DNA of 15,494 nt, from the UHGV virus genome UHGV-0123274, one strand, 5' to 3'. A program made the position numbers and the translations under genes. Positions 1 to 15,494 of the stretch are shown one piece after another. The DNA is from a virus. Below the pieces are notes generated by a model that ran no database searches, was not told the origin of the DNA, and saw only the letters and a list, made by a program, of their open reading frames with translations. Within the stretch, counting starts at the first letter, position 1. Each line of letters begins with the position of its first letter.

Positions 1-55
1 CAATTCGAATATTGGTTACGTCTGCATGTGCTATCTGCGCCCATATCATCCAGTG
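1..55. repeat. Left copy of a perfect 55-bp terminal inverted repeat (partner at 15440..15494)
   Basis: Bases 1..55 are the exact reverse complement of 15440..15494; identity stops at base 56 versus 15439. Confidence 0.9.
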
Positions 56-149
56 GTTATAACAGTCGTTGATGTTCTCTGCTTCGATAACCCTGTTGAA
101 TGGCTCTCCATTCCATTCACCTGTGACTCGGAAGTGCATTTATCATCTC

Positions 150-176
150 CATAAAACAAAACTCGCCGTAGCGAGT
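150..176 (-). terminator. Putative intrinsic terminator downstream of the distal nin-region genes
   Basis: Hairpin actcgc-cgta-gcgagt at 161..176; on the minus strand it is followed by a U-rich tract (complement of aaaacaaa at 153..160). Confidence 0.4.
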
Positions 177-222
177 TCAGATATAATTTCCACCAAAGGC
201 AGTAGTTGCTTGATGCTAAGAA

Positions 223-651
223 TTATTCAATATCTATTCCTGTAATATCTTTTATCTTTTTCCTTGCAAAGCCTTTTGCTAGTGATTTTGAAACACTCAT
301 AAGTGTACTAATTCCCTCATCCTTAAAGTTTGTTTTTATAGCTTGCCAGACATCCTTTTGACGTAAGTCAGCAATAAAATCATGCCCTCTTGCTGTCAAC
401 CTCAGTGGTACTTCGATCCAACTATATCCAACACCTTCCCCTAACGCTTTGGACAATATATGACCGAACCCAGGTTTTCCATCAACCCTGACTATTAATT
501 CGTAGTCACATAATAATCGCATATGGAAAATAAAATCTTGGTCATATCTATTAAAGCCATTATCCTCTAGTTCACTAAGCATCGTGTCAGGGCCACGAGT
601 TTTTTCGAATGCGATAAGTAGATCTTTTAGATATTGCTGGTCTAATTTCAT
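223..651 (-). CDS. Hypothetical phage protein, 142 aa (possibly DUF2513-like; assignment uncertain)
   Basis: ORF with GGAGG 5 nt upstream of ATG at 651; last gene of the minus-strand operon before a terminator-like hairpin. Confidence 0.6.
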   Translation of the reverse strand: MKLDQQYLKDLLIAFEKTRGPDTMLSELEDNGFNRYDQDFIFHMRLLCDYELIVRVDGKPGFGHILSKALGEGVGYSWIEVPLRLTARGHDFIADLRQKDVWQAIKTNFKDEGISTLMSVSKSLAKGFARKKIKDITGIDIE

Positions 652-679
652 TGCCGCCTCCGTGACATGTCACAGAGAT

Positions 680-1018
680 TTATATCATTAATTTTGTTTC
701 GTGCCAGCCTTTGGTCACCCAGCATTGTGAGTCACCATTACACGGGCATGAATTAACAGGAACTCTCTCGCCGCACTTACCGCACCGTTTTCTGCTGATC
801 GATTTTATACGCCAGCGCACACGTGCATCATCCTGGCGGCTCAGTAACGCGATGTACTCACCAAACTCGCAAGGCGCACGCCTGAAGCGACGCGTGGCAC
901 AGTTACGCTCCAGCATTTCAATTTCCTGAGCATCAAGTACAAGCTCCAGCTTACGCATACCGGATGATGCTTGCTTGGCTCTCTGATCGGCTTTGTGCTC
1001 TGTTGCTGATTTAGCCAT
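680..1018 (-). CDS. Hypothetical nin-region protein, 112 aa, with Cys-rich C-terminus (CGKCG...CPCNGDSQC), possible zinc ribbon
   Basis: ORF in operon context, overlaps upstream gene stop by 8 nt; Cys cluster seen in translation. Confidence 0.55.
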
Positions 1019-1358
1019 TCTGCTTTTCCTGCATCAGGAGAAAGACAATCATGGCGGCGCGGAGAGGTCTGGTATCAAATATTGGGCTTACGCCTTTTGC
1101 ATCCACACACCATTCAGTTAACTGGTCTAAGATAGAAATCCTGTATTTCTCAATAATCGGCCATGAAGCGCTCGGATCATTGCAGTAGTCAGGCAAATGA
1201 TTTAATGGCTCAAAAGTTGTATCAGCATTTCCGTAATACCATTTGTTGGTGTTATTCCCTGATGTTTCCGGTTTACTTGCCCAAAGGCCTTTAAAAATTA
1301 TGTCTCCTACCATTCTGTTAATTTCAAAATCACTTAACTGTGAATAATCCATTGTCAT
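1011..1358 (-). CDS. Hypothetical nin-region protein, about 115 aa from ATG at 1358
   Basis: ATG at 1358..1356 overlaps the ninE stop (ATGA coupling); the track ORF extends to 1394 but that start lies inside ninE. Confidence 0.6.
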
Positions 1359-1531
1359 TTCCTCGCACGATATCTTAGCCACCGGATATCCCACAGGTGA
1401 GCTGTGTAATTGAAGGTTTTTACGTCAGATTCTTTTGGGATTGGCTTGCGTTTATTTCTGGAGCGTTTCGTTGGAAGGTATTTGCAGTTTTCGCAGATGA
1501 TGTCGGTGAAACTTCGTCGCTGTCGCCTCAT
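1355..1531 (-). CDS. ninE: NinE-like protein, 58 aa
   Basis: Translation [58 protein letters not shown] matches lambda NinE as I recall it; ATG overlaps the methyltransferase stop (ATGA). Confidence 0.8.
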
Positions 1532-2058
1532 GCCGCCCTCCTGACGCCCTGCCCGATCGCCATCAATGCCGCTTTGGATACGGTAGTAAACATCCGTCGA
1601 GGACTGATGAACGGTCGCCAAATCAGCAGCATGGAGCCTTTGCTGTTTCCCTTCTTCTCCAGCCCTGTCGATGGTTCGATAAAATTAATCCGTCCATCAG
1701 TGATAATGCGAACTTCGTCGACACTCTCCAGAGCCTTGCTGAACCATCCGACTGACATATCCTCTGGCACAAGCATAACTACCGTCTGTCGCTGTTGTAT
1801 GCACTGCTCAGCGGCTTTTTCCACCCACGGCCTGATATTGCTGTACGGTGGGTTATTCCAGATTGCACCGTGGCTTACCCACTCAGAATTGAGCGCGTCG
1901 TCGGCCTCAGTTAGCCAGTGAGCACACAGAGCATTTTTGTCGCTCGCTGCCGAATCCAGCCAGAATCCAAACTCAATATCCAGTGCATCAAAAAGCCAGA
2001 GCGGCGTTTGCCAGCAGTCTCTAACTTCTTTTGGTGTTTCTGATTTATGCTTAATCAT
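1528..2058 (-). CDS. dam: Phage Dam-family DNA N6-adenine methyltransferase
   Basis: 176-aa product with catalytic NPPY motif and LDSAAS SAM-binding-like segment; ATGA overlap with upstream HNH gene. Confidence 0.85.
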
Positions 2059-2582
2059 TCACCCCTCGCATATTGTCCGTGATATTTGTTGATAGCCTCA
2101 CTGGCAACCAAACCAGCAAGCTCAAGATCTTCATAGAACCCAAAATGCAACCGGCCAAAATCTGTGCGCACTTGAACGGCCCATTTATTTTTTTGCTTGT
2201 TCCATAAAACATTTTTTATTCCAGAACGGCTATTGCACTTAGTTTTCTGATTTCGGCTGTTTGCTATCCGGCTTGCCTCCCTAAGATTTTTTGGGGAATT
2301 GTCCAGCCTGTTTCCGTTAATATGGTCAATATTTTTCAATGGCATTCTTTTGTTGTGCAGCGCAAAAACAACTACGTGAACAAACATCTGAATGCCTGCA
2401 AAACACACCTGTCTATACCCAGATCCATTTATCGATGTTTTAATTTCATCTCCGGCCCGGTGGCTGTGGTTGGGGTGTTTTAGCGAGTCCTTTTTGTATC
2501 TGACTGTATCTCCGTCTAAATACAGATAATCCTCAATAAGCCGATACCTATCTGACGCTGGCGTATTTGATTTGATAGTCAT
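2055..2582 (-). CDS. HNH homing-type endonuclease (HNH motif plus AP2-like DNA-binding region)
   Basis: Motif NIDHINGNRLDNSPKNLR (HNH) followed by WNKQKNKWAVQV...FGFYED (AP2-like); ATG at 2582 overlaps ninB stop (ATGA); track ORF start 2642 lies inside ninB. Confidence 0.8.
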   Translation of the reverse strand: MTIKSNTPASDRYRLIEDYLYLDGDTVRYKKDSLKHPNHSHRAGDEIKTSINGSGYRQVCFAGIQMFVHVVVFALHNKRMPLKNIDHINGNRLDNSPKNLREASRIANSRNQKTKCNSRSGIKNVLWNKQKNKWAVQVRTDFGRLHFGFYEDLELAGLVASEAINKYHGQYARGE

Positions 2583-3019
2583 GCAGCCCGATCTCCCCAT
2601 CTCGCTTTCCACTCCAGAGCCAGTCTCGCTTCGTCTGACCACTTAACGCCACGCTCTGTACCGAATGCCTGTATAAGCTCTAATAGCTCCGCAAATTCGC
2701 CTACACGCATCCTGCTGGTTGACTGGCCTATTACCACAAAGCCATTCCCGGCAAGGTTAGGAACAACATCCTGCTGCTTTAATGCTGCGGTAAACACACA
2801 CTTCCAGCTTTCTGCATCCAGCCAGCGACCATGCCATTCAACCTGACGAGAGACGTCACCTAAGCAGGCCCATAGCTTCCTGTTTTGGTCTAAGCTGCGG
2901 TTGCGTTCCTGAATGGTTACTACGATTGGTTTGGTTGGGTCTGGAAGGATTTGCTGTACTGCGTGAATAGCGTTTTGCTGATGTGCTGGAGATCGAATTT
3001 CAAAGGTTAGTTTTTTCAT
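2579..3019 (-). CDS. ninB: NinB (Orf-family recombination mediator)
   Basis: Translation from MKKLTFEIRSPAHQQNAIHAVQQILPDPTKPIVVTIQERNRSLDQNRKLWA closely matches lambda NinB as recalled; GGAGAGGG Shine-Dalgarno upstream of ATG at 3019. Confidence 0.9.
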   Translation of the reverse strand: MKKLTFEIRSPAHQQNAIHAVQQILPDPTKPIVVTIQERNRSLDQNRKLWACLGDVSRQVEWHGRWLDAESWKCVFTAALKQQDVVPNLAGNGFVVIGQSTSRMRVGEFAELLELIQAFGTERGVKWSDEARLALEWKARWGDRAA

Positions 3020-3044
3020 GACTTCCCTCTCCCCCAAATAAAAA

Positions 3045-3075
3045 GGCCTGCGATTACCAGCAGGCCTGTTATTAG
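3045..3075 (-). terminator. Intrinsic terminator between helicase gene and ninB (tR2-like position)
   Basis: Hairpin ggcctgc-gattacca-gcaggcc at 3054..3075; on the minus strand followed by U-tract (complement of aaataaaaa 3045..3053). Confidence 0.55.
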
Positions 3076-3095
3076 CTCAGTGATGTAGATGGTCA

Positions 3096-4532
3096 TCAGA
3101 ATCCCCCTTTCTTCTTGGACTGCGGTTCCTTGCGTTCACGGCGGCGAATTTCAGCAGACTGTTGGTCTGTGTCATAAATAGCGCCATTTGCCTGAATGCA
3201 ATACACCGTACCGGTATTGCCATGACGATTGAGACGAAGGATTAGTTCGGTTTCACCAGGTGGAACACTGTCATCAAAAGCGCCTTCACGATGGATCCCA
3301 ACCCAATAATCGCAATCCTGTTCAATCTGCCCTGTATCTCGTGAGTCACTTGGTAATGGGCGTTTATTGGTTCGGCTTTCCAGTGCGCGGTTAAGCTGCG
3401 TCAGAAGCACAACAACGCAATCAAGCTCTTTGGCAAGGTTCTTCAGTCCTTTGGTGATCATGCCGTAAGCAAGGTCGTTGCGATCGGCCTTCTCAGCGGT
3501 CATTAGTGTCAGGTAATCGACCAGAATCATGCCAACACATCCTTTTTCTCGCTTGATTCGACGGCTTTCGCTGACGATTTGAGCCAGAGATAATCCCGGC
3601 GTGTCGTCGATGTAAAGCATGTCGATTTCACTCAAGCGATTAGCTGTTTCGATCGCCCTGTTGAAGGCACCATCGTAATCACCCTGATAGCCGTCATCAG
3701 CGTCATTTGTCGCCGGAAGGTAAAAAATATTCGGGTTAACACCAGACTTCTGCCCTACCAGTTTTTCCAGTATCTGATCACCTGGCATTTCAAGGCTGAA
3801 CATCAAAGCGGGCTTTTTCTCATGCACTGCGCAATTGATTGCCATCTGGCTGTATAGCGTCGTTTTCCCCATCTTAGGGCGAGCGCCAATGACAAACAGA
3901 GAGCCTTTCACCAGACCTTTCGGTGACAGCATCCTGTCCAGCGATGGGATCCCTGTGCTCATTCCCCGTTGTTCGCCTGATGGGTCAAATCGCTTCTCAA
4001 GGTCGCTAACCCAGTCTTCCATGACCTCACCAAATGAACGAAGGCCGCGACGCGATCCGGTTTTTGCATGGTCTGTCAGTTGCGTGAAAATCGCCTGAAT
4101 AGCTTCGTACTTCTGCGTTGCAGTCATTCCGTTGCGGGAATAGAGCAATTCCGTCGCTTCAGTCATGCGGTTGATGGCGTAGCGTTCCATTGCGGTTTCA
4201 CGAACCTGCATTGCATAGGCAACGATGTTTGCTGCGCTTGGCGTGTTCTTTGCGATCTCAGCGATATAAGCAAAACCGCCAACAGACGCCGTTAACGATT
4301 TACGCTCCAGTTCATCGAAAAGCGTCAGGCCATCTACTGGCTTTTGCTCCCGGTGCATTCTGGTTATTTCTTCGAAAAGGATTTTGTGTGGTCGGCCGTA
4401 AAATGAATCAGGCTTCAGCATCGCCAGAACTTTCCGGACGCGCTCACTGCTGTCATCATCCAGAAGCAATCCACCAATCACCGCCTGCTCTGCCTCGATG
4501 CTATGGGGCGGCGCATAAAAATTATCGGTCAT
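3096..4532 (-). CDS. DnaB-family replicative DNA helicase
   Basis: 478 aa from ATG at 4532 (GAGGG RBS); Walker A GARPKMGKT and DnaB-like N-terminal region; overlaps the stop of the O-like gene. Confidence 0.9.
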   Translation of the reverse strand: MTDNFYAPPHSIEAEQAVIGGLLLDDDSSERVRKVLAMLKPDSFYGRPHKILFEEITRMHREQKPVDGLTLFDELERKSLTASVGGFAYIAEIAKNTPSAANIVAYAMQVRETAMERYAINRMTEATELLYSRNGMTATQKYEAIQAIFTQLTDHAKTGSRRGLRSFGEVMEDWVSDLEKRFDPSGEQRGMSTGIPSLDRMLSPKGLVKGSLFVIGARPKMGKTTLYSQMAINCAVHEKKPALMFSLEMPGDQILEKLVGQKSGVNPNIFYLPATNDADDGYQGDYDGAFNRAIETANRLSEIDMLYIDDTPGLSLAQIVSESRRIKREKGCVGMILVDYLTLMTAEKADRNDLAYGMITKGLKNLAKELDCVVVLLTQLNRALESRTNKRPLPSDSRDTGQIEQDCDYWVGIHREGAFDDSVPPGETELILRLNRHGNTGTVYCIQANGAIYDTDQQSAEIRRRERKEPQSKKKGGF

Positions 4533-5421
4533 CGTGTTCACCCTCACGAACTTTCAGGTAGGTATTATCGTTAAGCAGGAAATCAAATCCCTTTTTGTGC
4601 CAGACGGTTCCGCGCTGATGGTTTGGGCGCTCTTCGAACATCCATCGGCAATTTTCGCCTACGTAGCTCAAATAATTTCTCCAGTCCTGCATCGTGAAAC
4701 CATGCCCGTCAAGCTGTCGGGTTATCACTCCGGCTTTGCGCCAGAACGTTCGGATCTGGTTTTTACGCTTGTCATTCAGTGCGCGGATTCTTGGCGCTTC
4801 AGGAAGGATTTCGTGGTAAGCATCGACAACATCCTGACAGCTGACGGAAGGTTTTTTCTTGTCAGACTTTTTGTCTGCTGTGGCACTCTCTAATACGTCA
4901 GTATTAGAGATAATATTATTATATTCTTTATCTGTGGTAATTTGCTGGTAATCTGCTGGTACAGTATTGCTTGCAGGCATTGGTATTGCTGGCTTTGAGG
5001 TGGTAATTTGCTGGTAATCTGCTGGTACAAAATTTGACTGATAATCGTCATATTTCTCTACCGAGAAAACTGAGAATTTACCGTGTGAAACCCAGTCAAT
5101 CATGCCGAGTTTTTTGAACTTTCTAAGCAGGTACTGAACGCGATCTGGTTTGAGTCCTGTTTCAAACGCCAGAGTATTTCTACCGCCAAGTAGCTTCCCT
5201 CTGCCTACCAGAATTTCTCCTGCGTCAGTCATTACATACTCAGGCGTATGCTTTGCTTTGAGGATTAAGTGAACCCACAGATGCGCAGTTTCTGCGTCCT
5301 TGTAAAACGGCACATCCATAATTTTACGGTGCAGCAAGGCATACCCCTTACCGCTGCTTTGATGCGGTTGTTGTAGCCTTCTGGCCTCTCTGGCTTCGGC
5401 TAGATTAGATATGTTACTCAT
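4522..5421 (-). CDS. Replication initiator, lambda O-like (contains origin iterons)
   Basis: 299-aa ORF with AAGGAG RBS; sits between cII and helicase; internal tandem peptide [10 protein letters not shown] x2 coded by DNA iterons. Confidence 0.8.
4900..5040. repeat. Origin-like iteron array plus adjacent AT-rich tract inside the O-like gene
   Basis: 30-bp direct repeat gtggtaatttgctggtaatctgctggtaca at 4934..4963 and 5000..5029, built from shorter ggta(a/t)t..gc sub-repeats; AT-rich tract at 4900..4930 downstream in O direction, as in lambda ori. Confidence 0.65.
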
Positions 5422-5560
5422 GACCTTTCTCCTTCTGCATCAGCTTCACTTTTTCCAACTCAGCCCGGAATCGACCAGGCTGCTTGAAGCTGGACAGGAA
5501 GCGATCACGTAGTATGTGTTTGTGAATTTTGTCCTGGTAAGGACTGAGTTGTTTTGTCAT
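5414..5560 (-). CDS. Small 48-aa ORF between cII and O, translationally coupled to O
   Basis: ATG at 5560 preceded by AGGAG 5 nt upstream; product [48 protein letters not shown]; stop overlaps the O start. Not in the ORF track (below its length cutoff). Confidence 0.4.
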
Positions 5561-5594
5561 AATGACTCCTGTTGATAGATCCAGTCTTTCTACA

Positions 5595-5873
5595 TCAGGC
5601 CTCGAAGAATTCGCCGTTCTTCGGGGCTTTTTCTTTTGTCAGCATTCTGGCTACTTTCTTAGCCAGTTCCGCCAACTCCTCGTCTTCAACACCCCATTCA
5701 AGAACAGCCAGAAGCATTCCCATTTTTGGGATGAAGCTGTCTTTCCATCGCGAAATTTGCGATTCATTAATCCCTAACGCGTCGGCAACCTTTCGCTGAC
5801 CACGTACAGCAATTCGATTCAGGATGTTGCTTGTAATTGCATTCGCTTTCTTGCGAGTACTTGTAAGTTGCAT
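5595..5873 (-). CDS. cII: CII transcriptional activator
   Basis: Motifs QISRWK, IPK and [10 protein letters not shown] match lambda CII; true start taken as ATG at 5873 (AAGGA RBS) because the longer track ORF would cover the nutR site. Confidence 0.85.
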
Positions 5874-5930
5874 ATGTAAGTATTTCCTTAACAAATAAGA
5901 AGTTATGCGCATCAAATTATGCGCGTTGTA

Positions 5931-5975
5931 TTCCCGCATTTCGGCGGGAATGAGGACCATGACTGTTAAAGAGCG
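5931..5975 (-). promoter_or_regulatory. nutR-like antitermination site (boxA plus boxB hairpin)
   Basis: Minus strand reads CGCTCTTTAACA (boxA consensus) then hairpin uucccgc-cgaaau-gcgggaa; located directly downstream of cro, as in lambda. Confidence 0.6.
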
Positions 5976-5983
5976 GGTACTGC

Positions 5984-6202
5984 TTAGGCGGCTTTGTTAC
6001 TGGATGGAGGGAAAACATCATCCAAAGAACATTGGCACCCTAACTTCCTGAGGCCTTCTACGATCATTCGGCAATCGTTAAGGCCAGGAGTACGGATATT
6101 CAGCTCATAGTTGGCGATGCGGGATTGCCCCCAACCAATTGCTGAAGCTAGTACAGCTTGCGAAACTCCGATTTTTTTTCGCTGCTGGGCAATTTTGTTC
6201 AT
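5984..6202 (-). CDS. cro: Cro-like repressor (XRE-type helix-turn-helix)
   Basis: 72 aa from ATG at 6202 with AGGGAG RBS; HTH segment IGVSQAVLASAIGWGQSRIANYE; divergent from cI. Confidence 0.8.
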   Translation of the reverse strand: MNKIAQQRKKIGVSQAVLASAIGWGQSRIANYELNIRTPGLNDCRMIVEGLRKLGCQCSLDDVFPPSSNKAA

Positions 6203-6219
6203 TGCGGTCTCCCTAGCAT

Positions 6220-6305
6220 TAATCACACACCCATTACACACAATTTGTGATTAACAGTCAACCTCAATTCGTGTACAGAGTTCAATCACGTTGCGTGTTA
6301 CATTT
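6220..6305. promoter_or_regulatory. oR operator region with pR (minus strand) and presumed pRM (plus strand)
   Basis: pR: -35 TTGACT (6256..6261) with 17-bp spacer and -10 TGTAAT (6233..6238) on minus strand; palindromic CACA..TGTG-type sites, one (acacaatttgtgatt) near-identical to a site in oL. Confidence 0.6.
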
Positions 6306-6310
6306 AAGGG

Positions 6311-6958
6311 ATGAAAACGATGCATGAAATTATCGGGGAAAGGATCAAGTCCCTTAGAGAAGCTAAAGGACTTAGCCAGGCTCAATTGGCCAAGCTTTGC
6401 GGCTGGGCTGCGCCTTCACGCCTGGGGAACTACGAGTTAGGAACAAGAAAGGTTAGCGCGGATGACGCGCTGGTTCTTGGGGCGGCACTCGGCGTATCTC
6501 CGGCAAAAATAATGTTTGGCGAGGATTCAGACGCCGTATTTCGCCAATATGAATACCCGTTATTTTCTTCAGTGCAGGCCGGGCCATTTTCGGAGGTGGG
6601 AAGCTACACAGCCAGCGATGCAAAGGCATGGGTCCCAACGACCACAAAAGCCAGCGAAAAAGCTTTCTGGCTTGAGGTGAAGGGGCATTCAATGACGGCG
6701 CCTCAGGGGGTTCGTCCAAGTTTTCCGGAAGGCATGCTGATACTCGTTGATCCGGCTGAGCCGGTAGAGTCTGGGGATTTCTGCGTGGCTTCTGCAAATG
6801 GTGATTCAGAGGCAACGTTCAAGAAGTATGAGAAGGATGCAGGGGTTAGTTACCTGGTACCTTTAAACCCGGCATATAGAACACTGGATTGCGACCATAG
6901 CTGCCGCATCATAGGCAAGGTAGTTAAGGCGCAGTGGCCTGAAGAGACGTTTGGCTGA
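6311..6958 (+). CDS. cI: CI-type prophage repressor (N-terminal HTH, C-terminal S24 LexA-like autopeptidase domain)
   Basis: 215 aa; [15 protein letters not shown]; Ala-Gly cleavage candidate in VQAGPF; Ser in GHSM and Lys in TFKKY; C-terminus AQWPEETFG resembles lambda cI as recalled. Confidence 0.9.
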
Positions 6959-7108
6959 TCGGCAAGGTGTTCTGGTCGGCGCATAGCTGGTGAAAAAATT
7001 ATTTAATGCGGTGTATTGGCTGATTGTAACCCCATGTAACATCTTGCCGTCACCATTTCGGTGGTTAGATTTTTAATAAAAAAAAACAAATGTATAGCAA
7101 GGTTTTTT

Positions 7109-7588
7109 ATGGATAAAATTAATTACCCACCCCTGTTTGAGCCAGGGTTCCATGACATGGATGAAGCTGGATTAAAATCGTATTGTGTCGATTGCTTTCC
7201 TTCATCATCCAGGCGAGGCATGCTATACTGTAATTTTATACAGCTACTCGAATCTATTCGAGAATTATCTGCTCAATATGGCTGTTTTACAGAAATATGG
7301 GTTGATGGTTCATACACCACGTCTAAACCAGAGCCTGATGATATTGATATTTTGTTGGTATGTGACTATAGCAATATAAACTCAATACCTGTCATGCTTC
7401 GGGGCCGCGTCGATAATTTGCTTGACCGAAACTACATCAAACAAAACTACAAAATTGATGTCCTACTACTCATGAAGAATTTAGATGACCCTAACTATGA
7501 TTATGAGTACTGGCGTAGCTACTGGCGCGGTTGGTTTGGTTTTGATCGCAGTGAAAACCCGAAAGGGTTAGTGAGGATTTTTTTATGA
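7109..7588 (+). CDS. Minimal nucleotidyltransferase-fold protein (Pol-beta superfamily), 159 aa; first gene of rexAB-position cassette
   Basis: Motif VDGSYTTSKPEPDDIDILLV fits the GS-x9-DxD signature (compare LFGSYARG...SDIDLLV in MNT proteins); ATG at 7109 preferred over GTG at 7061; visibly AT-rich. Confidence 0.65.
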   Translation: MDKINYPPLFEPGFHDMDEAGLKSYCVDCFPSSSRRGMLYCNFIQLLESIRELSAQYGCFTEIWVDGSYTTSKPEPDDIDILLVCDYSNINSIPVMLRGRVDNLLDRNYIKQNYKIDVLLLMKNLDDPNYDYEYWRSYWRGWFGFDRSENPKGLVRIFL

Positions 7589-8517
7589 ATGATAAATCAA
7601 TGTTTAAAAATTGCGATAAACGCATTGATTTCATTCAAAAAGAAGTCGATGCAATGAAGCAAAACAAAACCAGGTCCTTTGCTGACATGCTTCTTTATCG
7701 CTCCATGGATTCTCATCTGAGCGATTTGAAGGCCGAAAAATTAAAGCAAGATAGTCGGCACCCACTTATCGATTTTTTTGAGCTGCGGCTGAAAGGCTCT
7801 GAGGTTGACTTTGGCTCTATTCCTTTAGAGCTGCTTGGGGCTATTTCAACAAATCTTGCAGCGCTAATACAAAGAGCAACACACAAAATTGCCTCAGGCA
7901 AGGACTCAAAAAAAGTTCCCTACGACGTGAAAAGCTCCTTAAACCTCAGGCTGGCTGATTTATCCCCTGGGTCTACAAAATTGGGCGTCACCTTCTCTAC
8001 AGGAATAGCAGAATTAGTAGAAACAGTACCCAGCAAGGCTGTAAAAGGCATATTCGATTTGTTGTTAAGCGATGACGACAACAACTTCATGAATCACGTC
8101 GCTGAAATTGGATACAATTCCACTGTAAGCCTTAAGAGAATCGTAGAGGAATGCGATAAACACAACTTAACATTTGATGCAAGTTGGACCGGTCCATTTA
8201 GTAATGGCACCAAGGTGGCAACTATTGACTCCAATAAAATTAAGTACTTGGTGAGTAGACTTACATCAACCATTTCATCCCCTCCCATTACTGAAACGGT
8301 TACAGGCGAACTGGTCGTTCTATCCAAATATGGGAAGCTGGAGCTTGATGTTGGTGGTGAACATTTAAAGGCTTCCTATCCGATTGAAATGCTAGATTTA
8401 ATACAAAAAAAACACAAGGTCGGACAGATTGTTTCTCTTTTAGTGGAGACTACTGAGATTCACAATGATCGCATAGGTCTGTACCGTAAAAACCATCTTG
8501 TTAAATCGGTTCTTTAA
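7585..8517 (+). CDS. Hypothetical 310-aa protein, second gene of rexAB-position cassette; no confident domain
   Basis: ATGA overlap with upstream gene, GAGGA RBS; soluble-looking, no obvious TM segment; AT-rich. Confidence 0.75.
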   Translation: MNDKSMFKNCDKRIDFIQKEVDAMKQNKTRSFADMLLYRSMDSHLSDLKAEKLKQDSRHPLIDFFELRLKGSEVDFGSIPLELLGAISTNLAALIQRATHKIASGKDSKKVPYDVKSSLNLRLADLSPGSTKLGVTFSTGIAELVETVPSKAVKGIFDLLLSDDDNNFMNHVAEIGYNSTVSLKRIVEECDKHNLTFDASWTGPFSNGTKVATIDSNKIKYLVSRLTSTISSPPITETVTGELVVLSKYGKLELDVGGEHLKASYPIEMLDLIQKKHKVGQIVSLLVETTEIHNDRIGLYRKNHLVKSVL

Positions 8518-8524
8518 TATCTCA

Positions 8525-8550
8525 CCCGGCCACCGCGCCGGGTTTTTTAT
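8525..8550 (+). terminator. Intrinsic terminator after the cassette (tImm-like)
   Basis: Hairpin cccggc-caccgc-gccggg followed by tttttt; resembles the lambda terminator after rexB as recalled. Confidence 0.7.
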
Positions 8551-8764
8551 TGTCCGCCGATCACTATCAGGACAGCACCTGCCAGCCGGTCCAAACAATT
8601 GATTAAATTACTATAATTCTTAATACAACTCCCATATCCCGCCATCTCGCCACCACCACCTTCGCTCGTTTTTCGAACTTTTCAGCACCCATCCTGCTGT
8701 TGCCACCGACTTAAGTAAGCAAAACCATCGCGGGTAAAACTATTTACACAAAAAAATCATACAC

Positions 8765-8830
8765 ATAACGTGTCACACCTTTATTTTACACATTTTGTGA
8801 TTGACCATTAAATCACAATATGTGACTATC
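8765..8830 (+). promoter_or_regulatory. oL operator region and pL promoter
   Basis: -35 TTGACC (8801..8806), 17-bp spacer, -10 GACTAT (8824..8829); flanking palindromic sites acacattttgtgatt and tcacaatatgtga; downstream ATCAGCAGGACGC resembles the lambda pL start region as recalled. Confidence 0.6.
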
Positions 8831-8875
8831 ATTTCCATCAGCAGGACGCTGGTAGCCAAACGGAACATATTGGCA

Positions 8876-8917
8876 GGCTCTTTAACATTGATGGGATTGT
8901 CCCGCCGAAATGCGGGA
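8876..8917 (+). promoter_or_regulatory. nutL-like site (boxA plus boxB)
   Basis: GGCTCTTTAACA (boxA-like) then hairpin tcccgc-cgaaat-gcggga; boxB identical to the nutR copy. Confidence 0.6.
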
Positions 8918-9275
8918 ACTGAGTTTAACAAAACAGGAGGTGCCGTAATGGTGCACTAACGCGGTTAGACCGCAGCCGAAAGGCAATGCAGCAGTAATGA
9001 TGCTGCCCCGAGTCGCGTAATGGCGAGCAGGTTTAGCAGACCGATGTGAGGGTAAATAAGGGAACATGCTCCGGAAAGGCAGCGCGAATGCCAGACGCGC
9101 ACCGGTTATCAGCGGCTAATAAGCGACAGAGACTCAAGGGCATGAGCGCGCTCACTGCGAGAGTGTGAGTCAAAGAGTAGTTGGCTTTGGGGTGACGTGA
9201 AGTGCAGCTGCACGACGGCAACCGGAAGATAAGCACCCGGCGCGTCACCGCCAAAGTCAATCATCGGAGGTCAAC

Positions 9276-9548
9276 ATGACAGTAGTCATTACATATCTGG
9301 CTGACGATAACGCCAGAAATCGCCGCAGAGCACGCAGACAGGCTCAACGTGAACAGGCAATGCAAGAGCAGCGACTGGCACGAAAAATTGCGCTAAAGCT
9401 CTCTGGTTGCGTCAGAGCAGATAAAGCAGCATCACTCGGAAGCCTTTGCTGCAAGGAAGAAGATGAACGCAGTGGAAGTATTTGCCTGCCAAACGTAGCC
9501 ATTTACGCGGCAGGATACCGGAAATCAAAACAACTGACAGCGAGGTAA
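9276..9548 (+). CDS. N: N-type antiterminator with arginine-rich motif
   Basis: GGAGG RBS; N-terminal ARM NARNRRRARRQAQREQ; segment ARKIALKLSGCVRADKAASLGS resembles phage 21 N as recalled; first gene after pL/nutL. Confidence 0.7.
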   Translation: MTVVITYLADDNARNRRRARRQAQREQAMQEQRLARKIALKLSGCVRADKAASLGSLCCKEEDERSGSICLPNVAIYAAGYRKSKQLTAR

Positions 9549-9551
9549 GTG

Positions 9552-9776
9552 ATGAATCAGACATACATTCCATCATGCTTGAGAAATCTGCCAAAGCAGA
9601 AAGCAAAGCCCCGCAAGCAAGCCATAAAGGACGCTAAGGCAGAGGTTATTGATCAAGCAATACAATTGCTCAGGGAGGAGTTAAGAAGTGGCAAGCTCGA
9701 AGGAATGATGATGCCCTATCAGCGCGGATATCTATCGGCGATTAGTAAGTTGGAAGTATTGAAGAGTGAATTATGA
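9552..9776 (+). CDS. Hypothetical early-left protein, 74 aa
   Basis: ATG at 9552 with GAGG RBS immediately after the N stop. Confidence 0.5.
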   Translation: MNQTYIPSCLRNLPKQKAKPRKQAIKDAKAEVIDQAIQLLREELRSGKLEGMMMPYQRGYLSAISKLEVLKSEL

Positions 9777-9838
9777 ACTATCTGGAATTTCCGGATGGTT
9801 CATTGTTTTGGCAGCAAACCACTTATTTGAGGTGATAT

Positions 9839-10288
9839 ATGGAAGAACAAGCAAACAAGATTCTCGTAGAACTACTGCAAAAAGCCAGTAATGGAATAGA
9901 CGCGGCTGTTTCATTCAGCCAGGCACAGATTCCTGATGTTGTTCATCAGTTGCTGCTATGGAATATGGTTGACAGTCTGATTAAAACATTAATGGCCATT
10001 CTAACAATCCCACTGGTTTTCTGGTTTATGAAGAAGCAGTGCCAAAGAGTTGAGACAGGTAAAATCGGTGATGAAGGATATTCATGGGAGAAAGGAAATC
10101 CCAAATACATGCCGACAATGGTTTGGGATAGCAAAGGTGATATTAATCTTCTTATCATGCCATTGGTTGTAGTTTTGACTCTGTGGGGGATTTTTATTAT
10201 TGGTGTAGTAACCAATATGACTTGGTTAAAAATTTGGCTGGCCCCAAAGCTTTACCTTATCGAATATGCAGCATCATTGGTTAAGTAA
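9839..10288 (+). CDS. Small membrane protein, 149 aa, two predicted TM helices; possible superinfection-exclusion protein
   Basis: Hydrophobic stretches MAILTIPLVFWFM and LLIMPLVVVLTLWGIFIIGVV; GAGG RBS; followed directly by a terminator; AT-rich. Confidence 0.7.
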   Translation: MEEQANKILVELLQKASNGIDAAVSFSQAQIPDVVHQLLLWNMVDSLIKTLMAILTIPLVFWFMKKQCQRVETGKIGDEGYSWEKGNPKYMPTMVWDSKGDINLLIMPLVVVLTLWGIFIIGVVTNMTWLKIWLAPKLYLIEYAASLVK

Positions 10289-10292
10289 TTTC

Positions 10293-10317
10293 AGGCCGCA
10301 TAGTCGGCCTTTATTTT
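10293..10317 (+). terminator. Intrinsic terminator after the membrane-protein gene
   Basis: Hairpin aggccg-catagt-cggcct followed by ttatttt. Confidence 0.6.
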
Positions 10318-10340
10318 GGGCATAAACAACAGAGGTGAAT

Positions 10341-10628
10341 ATGAAAGAGTTTAAGGGTACGCCTGGTAAATGGAAGTACACGGTTAGAAACGTCAACGAG
10401 ATGATGACTACGTTCCATGGTGTGACGATTGGTGACACATACATTGAAGCAGCAACAAGAAATGAAAGGGAGGATGCGCTACTGATAGCGGCAGCACCTG
10501 ACCTTCTCGAAGCACTTCAGTTATTACTTAAGCAATCCAAAAATAGAACAACGACAACATATCCAGAATGGTATGAAGCTGTTAATAAAGGTCTTGCAGC
10601 AATCAGAAAAGCTCTTGGGGATAAGTAA
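10341..10628 (+). CDS. Hypothetical protein, about 95 aa
   Basis: ATG at 10341 with AGAGG RBS; the track ORF begins at an upstream GTG (10335). Confidence 0.55.
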   Translation: MKEFKGTPGKWKYTVRNVNEMMTTFHGVTIGDTYIEAATRNEREDALLIAAAPDLLEALQLLLKQSKNRTTTTYPEWYEAVNKGLAAIRKALGDK

Positions 10629-10816
10629 TGAAAGTAAAAATAACTGCTTCTAATACCAGTTTTGTTAGTGTTGGTGATATTACAGAAGTAATAACAAACC
10701 ATGATGGAACCCAAGTTATGTGGTCTGATTTTTGTAAAAGATATGAGCGAGTCACTTGGTGTAAACTCGTATGGGGCGTCGAATACGAAGAATTACCTGA
10801 AATGCATGACGAATAA
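10628..10816 (+). CDS. Hypothetical protein, 62 aa
   Basis: Start overlaps the upstream stop by one base (taATG); no recognisable motif. Confidence 0.45.
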   Translation: MKVKITASNTSFVSVGDITEVITNHDGTQVMWSDFCKRYERVTWCKLVWGVEYEELPEMHDE

Positions 10817-10911
10817 GCACTGTGTATTCATTCCAACGAGTGAATACACGGAGCAATGTCGCTCGTAACTAAACAGGAGCCGACTTGTTCTGATTATTGG
10901 AAATCTTCTTT

Positions 10912-10937
10912 GCCCTCCAGTGTGAGGGCTTTTTTAT
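10912..10937 (+). terminator. Intrinsic terminator upstream of cIII
   Basis: Hairpin gccctc-cagtgt-gagggc followed by tttttt. Confidence 0.6.
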
Positions 10938-11001
10938 ATGCATACCAATAACGCTTCACTCGAGGCGTTTTCGTTATGCAATCAAACAGAAGGAGCATCC
11001 T

Positions 11002-11172
11002 ATGCAACAGTTCGCTATTGCAGGGGCGGCATCGGTTCGCCCTTTCAACCCGATTTTATCGGTACAGCATTCACGAAAAAATATTTTAACCGGAGCAGAC
11101 TTTAAACAACCTCGCGTTAAGAGCTTGCTGGATCGTCTTGTTGAGTTTCTGAATCAAAAGGTACAGCCATGA
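11002..11172 (+). CDS. cIII: CIII-like protein (FtsH inhibitor that stabilises CII)
   Basis: 56 aa from ATG at 11002 with AGGAG RBS; MQQFAIAG...KSLLDRLVEFLNQ resembles lambda CIII (MQYAIAG...LIDILNQ) as recalled. Confidence 0.7.
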   Translation: MQQFAIAGAASVRPFNPILSVQHSRKNILTGADFKQPRVKSLLDRLVEFLNQKVQP

Positions 11173-11333
11173 AAAAACCAACTTACGAGGAACTGGAAGA
11201 AGCCCTGAAAGAGCTTAGAAGAATGGCTTTCGCCAGACGCACTAACTCTCACAACTGCGGCCCATTTCAGTACTCGGATTTATGCGAGGACATCATTGAG
11301 GTAACTCAACTGATTAAGGTCGTTAAGCAATGA
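11169..11333 (+). CDS. Small 54-aa ORF in the kil position
   Basis: ATGA overlap with cIII stop; product MKKPTYEELEEALKELRRMAFARRTNSHNCGPFQYSDLCEDIIEVTQLIKVVKQ; not in ORF track. Confidence 0.4.
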   Translation: MKKPTYEELEEALKELRRMAFARRTNSHNCGPFQYSDLCEDIIEVTQLIKVVKQ

Positions 11334-11414
11334 GTATTGCGGATACATGGTCAGACGAAGAATTCATTCGTCAGATGAACAAAATGCTCAATCAGCACAA
11401 AGAACAGGATAAAG

Positions 11415-11726
11415 ATGATGATTCTGACTCTGAATGATAAGCGTGAAATATCGCAAATAATCGCAAGTTTTACTGATGAAGATTACGAACGAATCAACAG
11501 TGAAGTTGATCGCCTCTGCAAACGTTGCGACCCAATAAGCGAAATGCTTCGCTCATATAAACCAGATGAACACACTAAGGACGCTATCGACTGGCTGGAA
11601 GATGATGACTGTAACTATCAGGAAAAAGCCGCTGAATGGTTCTGGGATGCAATAACCGAAAGAGTTAAGGCTGAATATGCCTTCGCAATATTCAAACGCA
11701 GACACATTTTTGGAGAAGCAGCATGA
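11415..11726 (+). CDS. Hypothetical protein, 103 aa, immediately upstream of recT
   Basis: ORF with ATGA coupling to recT at its 3' end; acidic, no recognised motif. Confidence 0.6.
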   Translation: MMILTLNDKREISQIIASFTDEDYERINSEVDRLCKRCDPISEMLRSYKPDEHTKDAIDWLEDDDCNYQEKAAEWFWDAITERVKAEYAFAIFKRRHIFGEAA

Positions 11727-12634
11727 GCAATATCGTTGAATTCGTTAAACAGCAAGAGCAGTTATTCTGCGGAGCATTGACTGAACAGACGGTGACATGG
11801 GCTAAGGAAAGCCAGTTTGCAATTCAGTATTTCCAGAAAAATGATTACCTGGCTAAAACTGCACTGGCAAATCCAACCAGCGCACAGAACGCCATCATCA
11901 ATGTTGCGGCGATCGGCATCACCTTAAACCCGGCTAGCAAACTGGCTTATCTGGTTCCGCGCGACGGCATGGTGTGCCTTGATATCAGCTATATGGGATT
12001 ACTACATATTGCAATGGAGTCTGGTGTTATCTCATGGGGTCAGGCAAAGCTTGTTCATGCTAACGATACTTATGAGTCAAACGGACTTGATAAAGCACCA
12101 ACCCATAAATACAACGCCTTCGGTGATCGTGGCGATATCGTTGGTGTTTACTGCACAGTTAAGACGCCAGCAGGTGATTATCTAACGGAAGAGATGAGTC
12201 TGGCTGAAATTGAGGCTGTAAGGAAAACAAGCAAGGCGGCATTCAGCGATAAAGGACCATGGGTAAATCACTGGAATGAGATGGCGCGAAAGACGGTCGT
12301 AAAGCGTGCAAGCAAGTATTGGCCTAAGGCATCACGTCTTGATAGTGCTATTCACGTACTAAACGAAGAAGAAGGTGTATGGACTGAACCAGTTATGCCG
12401 CACAAATCAGAGGAAGATATCCGCGAAGATGAACGGAAACGCCAGCAGGAAATAACGGATAAAGCACAACTTCTTTGTGATGAAATGGCTCAGGCTGAAA
12501 ACATGGATGATTTGAAGAGATATTTTGCAGAAGCATATCGCCTGACATCTGGAATGAAATTGCAGCAGAACATACAAGCCATTTACATAGAATGCAAAGC
12601 GAAACTGGAGGTTGCCAGTGAGCAAACTATATGA
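11723..12634 (+). CDS. recT: RecT-family single-strand annealing protein
   Basis: 303 aa; segment GPWVNHWNEMARKTVVKRASKYWP matches the conserved RecT core (GPWVTHWEEMAKKTAIRRLFKYLP as recalled); GGAGAAG RBS. Confidence 0.9.
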   Translation: MSNIVEFVKQQEQLFCGALTEQTVTWAKESQFAIQYFQKNDYLAKTALANPTSAQNAIINVAAIGITLNPASKLAYLVPRDGMVCLDISYMGLLHIAMESGVISWGQAKLVHANDTYESNGLDKAPTHKYNAFGDRGDIVGVYCTVKTPAGDYLTEEMSLAEIEAVRKTSKAAFSDKGPWVNHWNEMARKTVVKRASKYWPKASRLDSAIHVLNEEEGVWTEPVMPHKSEEDIREDERKRQQEITDKAQLLCDEMAQAENMDDLKRYFAEAYRLTSGMKLQQNIQAIYIECKAKLEVASEQTI

Positions 12635-13100
12635 AATTGCCAATGAATACGCAAAATTGATGGATTCAGATTTAGAACCAGAGATGATTGCTGACACAAT
12701 AGAAGGCATGGAAGGAGAATTTACCGATAAAATAGAACAACTTCTTTCCGTCATTAAAAATGAATCTGGTTATGCCGAACGCCTCAAGGAAGAGGCAAAG
12801 TCACTGAATGAGCGAGCCGCAGTAATTCAAAATAAGATTGACAGCATCAAATCATATATAGCGTCATCGCTTGAAATGGTTGGCAAGAAAAATATTCGAG
12901 CAGGTATTCACCAGGTAACAATCCGCAAACCGTCAGAAATTGTAGAAATAATCGACTCAAGCGCCCTTCCTCCTGAATACGTTGAGTTTGAAACGACAAT
13001 TAAAGCCGACAAACTGGCAATCAAGCACCAACTAAAAGCAGGAATAAATATTCCCGGTGCTCAACTCAAGGTTGGGGAACCTTCACTTCTTATCAAATAA
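12618..13100 (+). CDS. Recombination-module partner protein, about 160 aa, possibly Gp157-family (tentative)
   Basis: GTG at 12618 preceded by GGAGG; overlaps recT 3' end; coiled-coil-like composition; family call from memory only. Confidence 0.55.
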   Translation: MSKLYEIANEYAKLMDSDLEPEMIADTIEGMEGEFTDKIEQLLSVIKNESGYAERLKEEAKSLNERAAVIQNKIDSIKSYIASSLEMVGKKNIRAGIHQVTIRKPSEIVEIIDSSALPPEYVEFETTIKADKLAIKHQLKAGINIPGAQLKVGEPSLLIK

Positions 13101-13111
13101 CGGTATCGCCT

Positions 13112-13426
13112 ATGAAAAAGACTCCATGGGAGAAATGGGAAGTCGATTTCTTGCGCGAAGTATCGGCGACAATGCCAGTTGAAGTTATTGCTGAAAAACT
13201 GGAAAGGACTGAAAAATCAGTTATGGCGAAAGCAACAAGGATTGGCGCTGACATTGTTAGCCGACTTCGTGGAAGACGCTGGACAAGAGCCGAAGTATCA
13301 CTTTTCGGTAAGTTCTCCGCAGAAGAAATAGCAATTGCAACCTGCCGCTCAATTTATTCAGTAAGAGCTATGCGATACAAGCTAAAAAAACTCGATGAAG
13401 AAAGAGCAGGCATACGAATAAATTAA
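13112..13426 (+). CDS. Hypothetical protein, 104 aa
   Basis: Intact ORF in operon orientation; basic, possibly DNA-binding; no confident motif. Confidence 0.6.
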   Translation: MKKTPWEKWEVDFLREVSATMPVEVIAEKLERTEKSVMAKATRIGADIVSRLRGRRWTRAEVSLFGKFSAEEIAIATCRSIYSVRAMRYKLKKLDEERAGIRIN

Positions 13427-13442
13427 CATGGAGTAATTAACA

Positions 13443-13724
13443 ATGAAGCTAAACATCGACCTCGGAAAATACGTTATTACCGGAACCAAACACGATCTGA
13501 TTCTTAGCGAAAGAGGAATTATCAAAGAAGGCGAGAATGCAGGGAAAGAAACACTAAGTCGTATCGGTTATTACAGCAAGTTTGAGCATCTGGTCAAAGA
13601 GTTATGCAACCGTGAAATCCTGTTATCTCAGGCGCAGACGCTACAGGATATTCAGCAACATATCGAGACTTTAGCTGTGTCACTTAGCATGGCCGTTGAC
13701 CAGTTCGTGGAGAGTAAATCATGA
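13443..13724 (+). CDS. Hypothetical protein, 93 aa
   Basis: Intact ORF; coupled to the next small ORF via ATGA. Confidence 0.6.
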
Positions 13725-13885
13725 GAGGTCTTGCATACAATCCCGGCATTCTTCCGGCAGAAATGATTATTCGCCAACGCGTAAAGCCAATGCCATCGAG
13801 AGAGGAATTGCTTAAGAGAAATTCTTTTCCATCAGTGAATCAAAACAAGTATCTGAATGCGATGTTGCGGAGTGGGAAGAAATGA
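13721..13885 (+). CDS. Small 54-aa ORF bridging two coupled genes
   Basis: ATGA overlaps at both ends (13721 and 13882); not in ORF track. Confidence 0.4.
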
Positions 13886-14580
13886 AACAAATGACACTAA
13901 TTGAGATGGATGGATTTCTGAAAGGTAAATGCATCCCACGAGATTTAAAGGTTAACGAAACAAACGCTGAATATCTGGTGCGTAAATTTGCTGAGATTGA
14001 ATCAAAACTGGAAACGGCGTTGCGGGAGTGTCGTTCTGCTGGAATAACGATTGATAACCTTGAGGCCAAGTGCGCAGCGCTGGCTGCTGATAACAAGAAA
14101 GCAATGGAGGCAATGAGGCAGGCAGATGCAGCCGTTAAGTTGGCACACGAGAAGTTTTCGGCGCTGACTGCGGAGAATGCGGGGATGAAGGCGACATGTG
14201 AGGACCGTCGAACGTTCATTATGAACGGTGTGCAACTGGGTTATATCAAGGTTCCTACAGTAGATACAGACCCGGCACTTGATACCATTCGTGTTGCTGT
14301 ATCACCACAAGAACCAACCCCAGCCACCGACGCTTTCTTGGCTGAAGTGAAGACTGAAGCACGCAAGGAGGGCGCTTACTTTGTTGCGAACAGAATGCTG
14401 GCTGCCTGGGAAGCTGGTTTTATTGATGATACTGCGAAGAACGCCGCTGATATTGCCCGGATGATTCTTACCTCTACTGAGTTTATGGCTAATGCGCCGG
14501 AAGGCGATTTTGACCGCTCATTCTCTGATGGCGTACTCGAAGACATCGCTGCCCAGCTTCGCAAAGGAGTGCAGTCATGA
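13882..14580 (+). CDS. Hypothetical coiled-coil protein, 232 aa (possibly Ea22-like; low confidence)
   Basis: Alanine- and charge-rich helical composition; translational coupling on both sides. Confidence 0.7.
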
Positions 14581-14837
14581 GCATTCTTGAAATTCTAAAC
14601 ACTGGCCTCGCTCTGATGGGGTGGTTATTCATCATGTTCAAAACGGGCCAGTGGTTTATCTCCATTGCGCTAAAGCAGTGGGATAAGCGTAGAAAGCTAT
14701 CTCGTAGACAGAAGGCAGTAAACGAATTTTACGATGCGTTTGACCTGTCCAGCATCGAACCAGGAACAACGGTGCGCCTGGCGACTAAAGGCGATCTGAC
14801 AATCATGATGTATCGCACAGAAGGATCCGCCCAATGA
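14577..14837 (+). CDS. Small single-pass membrane protein, 86 aa
   Basis: AAGGAG RBS, ATGA coupling; hydrophobic segment LALMGWLFIMF near the N-terminus. Confidence 0.6.
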   Translation: MSILEILNTGLALMGWLFIMFKTGQWFISIALKQWDKRRKLSRRQKAVNEFYDAFDLSSIEPGTTVRLATKGDLTIMMYRTEGSAQ

Positions 14838-15433
14838 GCAACATCAACAAACAGGCGCTGCGTGGTCAGAGCGTCGAAGGTTCGTATTACCTGGCAGAAT
14901 GTGGTCATTGTGGCGAGATGTACCCAAGTAACAAGCTGGATGGAGGTGAGTCGCTATTTTCCGGCGATTACGGTGAATGCTTCTGCCACCTCTGTGGCGC
15001 TGATGATTCTGATATTGCAGATAACGGCGCGTGGGGTTCTGAGGCTGTAACAGCATGGAATTATCAGCAGAAGCGTATCGAAGCGCTGCTGGATGAGAAC
15101 TACAGGCTGACTGCGGAGCGTGATGCTCTGCGAGAAAACATAGGCGGTGACAACACCCGTGCAGCTGCTGATATTTACTTCCAACTGGTCGAGGAGTGCG
15201 AAATTCCTGCTGGCGGATCTCTGGTCGAATACGTTGATGATATGCGCGAGAAGCTGGAAGCCGCAGAGAAGCGCATTGCAGAACTGGAAGCACGGGAAAT
15301 ATCGCTCCCAGAACGTAGCAGCATGCTTCATCGAACAGATTTCCACGAGGATTACCAAACGGTAATGGCATACAAAGTTTCTGAAGTCATCGCTGCAATC
15401 CGCGCTGCAGGCATTCGCATCAAAGGAGAGTGA
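14834..15433 (+). CDS. Hypothetical protein, 199 aa, with N-terminal Cys/His cluster (putative zinc ribbon) and coiled-coil C-terminus
   Basis: ATGA coupling to upstream gene; CGHCG...CFCHLCG motif; preferred over the long antisense ORFs because of operon context. Confidence 0.7.
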   Translation: MSNINKQALRGQSVEGSYYLAECGHCGEMYPSNKLDGGESLFSGDYGECFCHLCGADDSDIADNGAWGSEAVTAWNYQQKRIEALLDENYRLTAERDALRENIGGDNTRAAADIYFQLVEECEIPAGGSLVEYVDDMREKLEAAEKRIAELEAREISLPERSSMLHRTDFHEDYQTVMAYKVSEVIAAIRAAGIRIKGE

Positions 15434-15439
15434 TATGAG

Positions 15440-15494
15440 CACTGGATGATATGGGCGCAGATAGCACATGCAGACGTAACCAATATTCGAATTG
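15440..15494. repeat. Right copy of the perfect 55-bp terminal inverted repeat
   Basis: Exact reverse complement of 1..55; begins 6 nt after the stop of the last plus-strand gene. Confidence 0.9.

Follow-up and report, generated by a model that had tools for sequence, protein, structure and literature searches.

The 15,494-nt DNA examined here (the window), from UHGV virus genome UHGV-0123274, begins and ends with the same 55 bases in opposite orientations, and the question it raises is whether this terminal inverted repeat belongs to the biology of a phage or to the way in which the sequence was assembled. As the preliminary description had noted, positions 1-55 are the exact reverse complement of positions 15440-15494, and the identity ends abruptly: the perfect match is exactly 55 nt long, and base 56 (G) is not the complement of base 15439. 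A repeat search stretches the pair to 67 nt at 94% identity, by way of scattered matches only (TAT.A.CACTGG). In a whole-window search, none of the 15-mers, 20-mers or 25-mers of the 55-mer was found elsewhere in the window. By chance, two fixed positions would match perfectly over 55 nt with an expectation of 4^-55; the terminal repeat is not a product of chance, and the observation is real.

The gene tables and Pfam matches agree with the earlier description of the window as a lambdoid early region that lacks structural genes; lysis genes are absent as well. The minus-strand genes, which extend from position 1 to about 6240, form a pR-type operon together with int-proximal genes and are arranged, starting from position 1, in the order orf55-like gene (cut), DUF2513 gene, 112-aa gene, NinX, NinE, Dam, HNH endonuclease, NinB, DnaB-like helicase, O-like gene with iterons, DUF2740, cII, and cro. 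The plus-strand genes start at 6311 and encode a LexA-family cI-type repressor, two proteins in the rexAB position, N, RecT, Gp157, DUF4752, and an Ead/Ea22-like protein (14834..15433, plus strand; Pfam PF13935), the last of these being the final full gene of the pL-type operon. The window thus carries what is expected of the early region of a lambdoid prophage, including divergent cI and cro genes, N with both nutL and nutR, O with ori iterons, nin genes, and a pL recombination module. Domain searches of the window genes revealed no transposase, invertase, protelomerase, or protein-primed polymerase, and no resolvase/invertase or integrase domain was matched among them in Pfam.

Several further features of this early region were observed. 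The nut sites (nutR, 5931-5974, minus strand; nutL, 8877-8918, plus strand) surfaced in the repeat search as a 19-nt perfect inverted pair with an adjoining 18-nt pair; in each of them boxA (GCTCTTTAACA) is followed by the boxB hairpin (CCCGCCGAAATGCGGG), and one occupies the gap from cro to cII, whereas the other precedes N. Iteron-like direct repeats at 4934-5034 (GTGGTAATTTGCTGGTAATCTGCTGGTACA), with two full copies and one partial copy, lie inside the O-like gene (4522-5421) and are the expected lambdoid ori. The two genes between cI and pL, at the position of lambda rexAB, encode a DUF6932 protein (7061-7588, plus strand) and a 310-aa protein (7585-8517, plus strand) that match components A (2.4e-41) and B (7.5e-45) of the PADLOC candidate defence system PDC-M63; this pair (7061-8517) is probably a prophage-expressed defence pair. 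The HNH endonuclease gene (2055-2582, minus strand) is inserted between NinB and Dam. It is present in argW-type prophages and absent from lambda-like relatives, in which 10 nt replace window positions 2020-2556, and this presence/absence pattern is the typical polymorphism of a homing-endonuclease-like gene.

The terminal 55-mer itself is in-frame coding sequence, namely codons 29-46 of a conserved 55-codon phage gene. The left arm of the repeat (1..55) represents these codons in an orf55-like gene on the minus strand, of which the window contains the 5' 139 nt of 168 nt (1..139, ATG at 139-137); the gene is intact as far as the contig reaches, is cut by the contig end, and was translated in full in a related contig (L001). 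Its product is 98% identical to the lambda ORF at 29122-29286, which is located just upstream of xis, is also present in 434, HK630, DE3, and Stx phages, and matched no Pfam family. Many complete E. coli genomes carry the left arm at 100% identity in lambda-like prophages, in which it leads outward to xis-int, and the 55-mer has a median of 1 place per genome in complete E. coli genomes, or about one per prophage. Lambda-like prophages at ybhC, which have the gene order 112-aa gene, DUF2513, orf55, xis, int, ybhC, match window positions 1-700 at 100% identity with their int-proximal end. The DUF2513 gene (223-651, minus strand) and the 112-aa gene (hyp112; 680-1018, minus strand) form the int-proximal module of such prophages (223..1018), and window positions 1-1076 are 99.6% identical to two related contigs (L001 and L006). 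Beyond the left arm, five independent contigs run into the remaining part of orf55 and a lambda-type xis gene. In the sibling assembly L009, a ferritin-like gene and a gene for an HTH_5 regulator take the place of ybhC after the same lambda-type int gene (2962-4267), which suggests a different integration site or host.

The right arm (15440..15494) consists of the same codons on the plus strand, within a 5'-truncated orf55-like relic. In relatives, the stop codon of Ea22 overlaps the start of the next gene (GTGATATGAGCGCT...). A three-way comparison of the window with intact orf55 and with L048, in which Ea22 is followed by a DUF550 gene, places a deletion or mosaic joint at the inner boundary of the right arm (15434..15449, plus strand). 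At this joint ATGAGC, the first two codons of the normal post-Ea22 gene, is fused to codon 29 of orf55, so that a stub of 4 codons remains (ATG AGC ACT GGA TGA). The same joint is found exactly in three IMG/VR contigs (L003-L005) and in 10 long contigs or genomes (L017-L026), and many genomes that have it carry a single copy of the orf55 sequence; on these alignments, the right-arm deletion joint is real and widespread. Beyond the right arm, L003, L005, and L017-L026 continue into a TorI-type excisionase gene and then dsdC. In the 10 long contigs the 66-aa TorI-type gene lies directly before dsdC-dsdX-dsdA-emrYK-evgAS, a homologous gene is annotated as torI in L002, and in the 189 blocks that contain the exact Ea22 protein of the window, the TorI-type gene and dsdC typically come next. 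The flank belongs to a P22/HK620-like prophage located at argW, of which it forms the attR end.

Comparison of the lambda-type context (L001, L007, L009, L011, L012, L016) with the TorI-type context (L003, L005, L017, and others) revealed that they have 41 further bases in common, which comprise the last 9 codons of orf55, its stop codon, and a terminator-like hairpin (AAGCCGCC-UGAU-GGCGGUUUUUU) with a computed folding energy of -13 kcal/mol (z = -2.9). In related genomes, the identity between the two contexts therefore spans 96 bp, past which they diverge into different excisionase genes, and the window ends 55 bases into this block on either side. The block is an ordinary lambdoid mosaic island. 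It resembles the known mosaic boundaries at the small ORF before xis in lambda, 434, HK630, and Stx phages, as an island of near-identity between different integration modules, and differs from them in that the TorI-type context holds a 5'-deleted relic that is not called as a gene. The KplE1/HK620/Sf6-type module (TorI at attR, dsdC/argW) is the one to which the right end of the window leads in the 10 long contigs; the module itself, however, lies outside the window, which includes only the approach to it (Ea22 and the relic of orf55). In a different metagenome, a contig of 6,514 bp (L004, IMGVR_UViG_3300029878_000073) is 100% identical to window positions 9000-15494 and ends 19 nt past the window, 74 nt into the 96-bp repeat; its break fits no standard k, which speaks against the k-mer explanation given below, though it still falls inside the 96-bp block.

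The origin of the window bears on where its ends lie. An exact-protein look-up with the NinX protein of the window, a hybrid that is described below, retrieved the contig ena:ERZ1304779:NODE_1710_length_15494_cov_9.077401, whose named length equals that of the window. The part of NODE_1710 that was compared is contained without a difference in the reverse complement of the window and stops at window base 1. The window is therefore a complete metagenome contig with a SPAdes-style name. Giving the length in bp in such names is SPAdes usage and not that of Velvet, and the default k values of metaSPAdes are 21, 33, and 55, the last being the largest. The repeat length of 55 equals this default maximum; for ERZ1304779 itself we infer k=55 from the contig name, the SPAdes default, and the simulation described below, not from its metadata. 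ERZ assemblies from MGnify are made by metaSPAdes and keep the NODE_length_cov names (PMC7145632), and the terminal repeats of metagenome contigs were found to peak at 55, 77, and 99 bp, which are assembler k values (CheckV paper, PMC8116208), the first of these peaks being the length seen here. The repeat shares with the direct k-mer repeats discussed in that paper its location at the exact contig ends, its perfection, a length equal to the inferred assembler k (55), and the lack of biological meaning in itself. It differs from them in being inverted and in implying no circular genome, both ends entering one vertex from opposite strands. In the literature, no specific description of k-length inverted terminal repeats was found, the only statement being that of the CheckV paper on direct repeats.

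We simulated de Bruijn assembly of a model locus composed of the left flank from L007, the window, and the right flank from L017, with k-mers as vertices and the graph compacted; the flanks of the sample itself, presumably the lambda-type and TorI-type modules, were represented by those from assemblies of other samples. The unbranched path extended over 23..15472 at k=33, over 1..15494 (15,494 bp) at k=55, and over -21..15516 at k=77, and was unbroken at k of at least 97, the underlying inverted repeat being 96 bp long. Only k=55 reproduced the exact contig ends. The sibling contig L009 (ERZ1309120), which also has a SPAdes-style name, stops exactly 55 nt after the last base that separates two prophage types.

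With high confidence, we interpret the terminal inverted repeat as the k-length overhang of a 55-mer assembly, in which the path ends in a repeat common to two prophage contexts. Under this mechanism, the window would be a path through a de Bruijn graph built with 55-mers, and both path ends would meet one graph vertex in opposite orientations. The common vertex would be the first 55-mer of the block of about 96 bp formed by the 3' part of the orf55-like gene and the terminator hairpin. This block would occur twice in the sample, as the intact gene beside lambda-type xis-int and as the 5'-deleted relic beside the TorI-type excisionase. Since graph edges would retain k bases of their end vertex, each contig end would keep exactly 55 shared bases, inverted with respect to one another. 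The terminal inverted repeat thus exists as sequence without being a feature of the biology: that it is terminal and 55 nt long is an artefact of assembly, and only the inner boundary, the deletion joint, is biological. Among the explanations offered in the preliminary description was an assembly foldback artefact at the contig ends. The simulated k-overhang and the CheckV peaks uphold the artefact at contig ends; the foldback does not hold.

Whether the 15.4-kb path between the arms represents one molecule is a separate matter. The greater part of the window (2961..15494) is identical to the P22/HK620-like early region beside dsdC at the argW site, as seen in L017, L018, L027, and L039: positions 4834-15494 are 100% identical to L017 and L018, and L027 shows no mismatch from 2961 to 12582. 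Positions 1-1924 are of the lambda-like prophage type, with 2 mismatches to L007 versus 13 to L027 (all 13 at 1370-1924). Mismatch maps place the allele switch from the lambda-like type on the left to the argW type on the right within the Dam gene (1925..1998), with 1 difference from L007, L012, and L006 at 1999. A second switch is located in the NinX gene (1011..1352, minus strand; Pfam PF10765), which is a hybrid of the nin-region type from 1027 upward and of the int-proximal type in its last 16 nt; its stop codon overlaps the start of the 112-aa gene (ATGGCTAA). In the alignment, a 37-bp stretch (1027..1063) is identical in the nin-type and int-proximal-type contexts, and the context switch lies within it. 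The exact Dam protein (1,650 blocks) and the exact NinB protein (32,155 blocks) are ubiquitous and uninformative on this left-hand patchwork. Lambda-type NinB alleles (2602-2960) were considered as a sign of chimerism and dropped, as the allele occurs naturally beside DnaB-type helicases (L054).

The join of NinX to the 112-aa gene was found by BLAST in none of 5,426 complete E. coli genomes, and the exact 87-nt NinX/hyp112 junction had no match in IMG/VR, the GTDB representative genomes, or the JGI metagenomes. In a BLAST search of the same complete genomes and of 50,697 phage records, the whole window was found in no record, nor did any record span either of the unusual junctions; the matches served to place the separate pieces. 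The exact hybrid NinX is present on only 20 contigs, the longest of 30 kb, versus at least 1,000 for ordinary NinX. The left 1-2 kb of the window are joined to the remainder via rare junctions that are seen on short-read contigs only. In ordinary genomes such as 13KWH46, NinX and a 3' fragment of NinX by the 112-aa gene form an inverted repeat with its copies 12 kb apart in one prophage, and in ordinary lambda-like prophages this repeat is 37-50 bp long. The NinX join reflects one of two things: real but rare recombination, or a path switch that recurs when short reads of low coverage are assembled across a short inverted repeat. In the first case, it could have arisen by a flip of the early region or by recombination of a phage with a prophage. 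In phage TL-2011b (L047, NC_019445), a full-length NinX gene followed by the 112-aa gene (4994-5666) is 93.5% identical to window positions 687-1352 and closes the rightward early operon, the terminase genes coming directly after it. The TL-2011b pair indicates that NinX followed by the 112-aa gene is a natural module, and that the NinX fragment of lambda-like prophages is a remnant.

The strongest alternative to a wholly artefactual architecture accepts that the contig ends are k-overhangs and proposes that the hybrid early region of 15.4 kb is real and lies between the copies of a genuine inverted repeat, at least 96 bp long, next to lambda xis-int at one end and to TorI-attP/attR at the other. 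Such a region would have originated by homologous recombination, mediated by RecT/Red or RecA, between a P22-like phage and a resident lambda-like prophage; its inverted architecture would then belong to the biology, and the region might in principle be able to flip. We regard this proposal as a tentative possibility. A 37-bp repeat cannot be crossed by graph collapse at k=55, so the junction 55-mers must have come from reads or from contigs of an earlier k. The join also recurs in independent assemblies by other assemblers, including the MEGAHIT contig L007, which has the order P-ren-NinB-Dam-NinE-NinX-112aa-DUF2513-orf55-xis-int-ybhC, and an identical contig is recorded in two samples. RecT is encoded in the window, and 37-50 bp falls within the range of homology used in recombineering. 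Against these points stand the absence of the join from the complete E. coli genomes, the small number of contigs with the hybrid NinX, none of them longer than 30 kb, and the fact that argW-type prophages identical to 2961-15494 continue elsewhere through Dam-NinE-NinF-...-Q to lysis and structural genes. The segment resembles known lambdoid homologous integration and prophage rearrangements in that the left 1-2 kb are joined via the 37-bp NinX homology and a segment of Dam; it differs in being a candidate event only, with a join that is present in no complete genome and may be an assembler path switch.

The chromosomal map bears on how such a join could form. The ybhC and dsdC loci are about 1.7 Mb apart on the K-12 map, and the gene orientations read against that map place the homologous segments of the prophages at these two loci in direct orientation. 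With this distance and orientation, a join made within the chromosome alone would amount to a lethal deletion, and this favours a phage-derived molecule or a chimera. That the contig is one real molecule, in which a P22/HK620-like early region is joined via the 37-bp NinX homology to a lambda-like int-proximal module and bracketed by an inverted repeat of at least 96 bp and two integration modules, seems to us somewhat unlikely. If it is, its source could be RecT/Red-type recombination of a phage with a prophage, or a flip of the early region that swaps which operon reads into xis-int. A true join of NinX to the 112-aa gene would place xis-int downstream of the pR/nin operon, and the whole early region would be flipped relative to int. 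The explanation of the terminal repeat as a 55-mer overhang is the same whether the join is real or chimeric.

The remaining readings concern the nature of the arms themselves. It is very improbable that the arms are the crossover sites of a site-specific invertible or excisable segment, either of the Hin/Gin/Cin type or a tyrosine-recombinase switch, as had been listed earlier. The inverted orientation would suit such a system, and integrase genes lie just past the left arm in related genomes, but the window encodes no invertase, the length of 55 nt is accounted for by k, and conserved coding sequence continues past both ends elsewhere. Moreover, the right arm is bounded on its inner side by a plain deletion joint, which many genomes with only one copy of the sequence share. 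Integrases of the lambda and KplE1 types use att sites beside int and xis and are not known to act inside orf55. The interpretation of the arms as the inner ends of two inverted IS copies, or of a composite transposon, has a negligible probability. Its one attraction is geometric, a perfect inverted repeat at both ends; the 55-mer, however, consists of in-frame codons of a conserved 55-aa phage gene that occurs about once per prophage, and the sequence runs past both ends elsewhere. Neither the window domains nor the flanks in related genomes yielded a transposase in or beside the arms. The preliminary description had named flanks with two ordinary IS copies as a refutation; those in related assemblies proved to be two different prophage integration modules, with xis/int or TorI outward of the arms. 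It is scarcely credible that the window is the genome of a linear phage or plasmid that ends in inverted terminal repeats, either protein-primed or with hairpin telomeres, or a foldback chimera from library preparation or amplification: the repeats do lie at the exact ends, and contigs with inverted terminal repeats are sometimes complete linear genomes, even if only 33% of them looked complete (PMC8116208), but the window encodes no terminal protein, protein-primed polymerase, protelomerase, structural, or lysis genes, its replication genes are a lambda-O-like gene with iterons and a DnaB-like helicase gene, and chromosomal prophages and longer contigs carry identical sequence past both ends. 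From a foldback chimera one would expect a long palindrome, whereas here arms of 55 nt enclose 15.4 kb of unique sequence.

The terminal repeat finding is itself ordinary, and its value is one of caution. A pipeline that takes terminal inverted repeats of at least 20 bp as the sign of a complete linear genome would accept this 15.5-kb fragment of a prophage as one, and terminal repeats as long as the assembler k, in either orientation, should be discounted. Rare junctions at 37-bp homologies are likewise not to be trusted without read-level support. For the lambdoid phages, short islands of identity between their modules, here 96 bp by the ORF that precedes xis, cause prophages to be broken into pieces when metagenomes are assembled from short reads.
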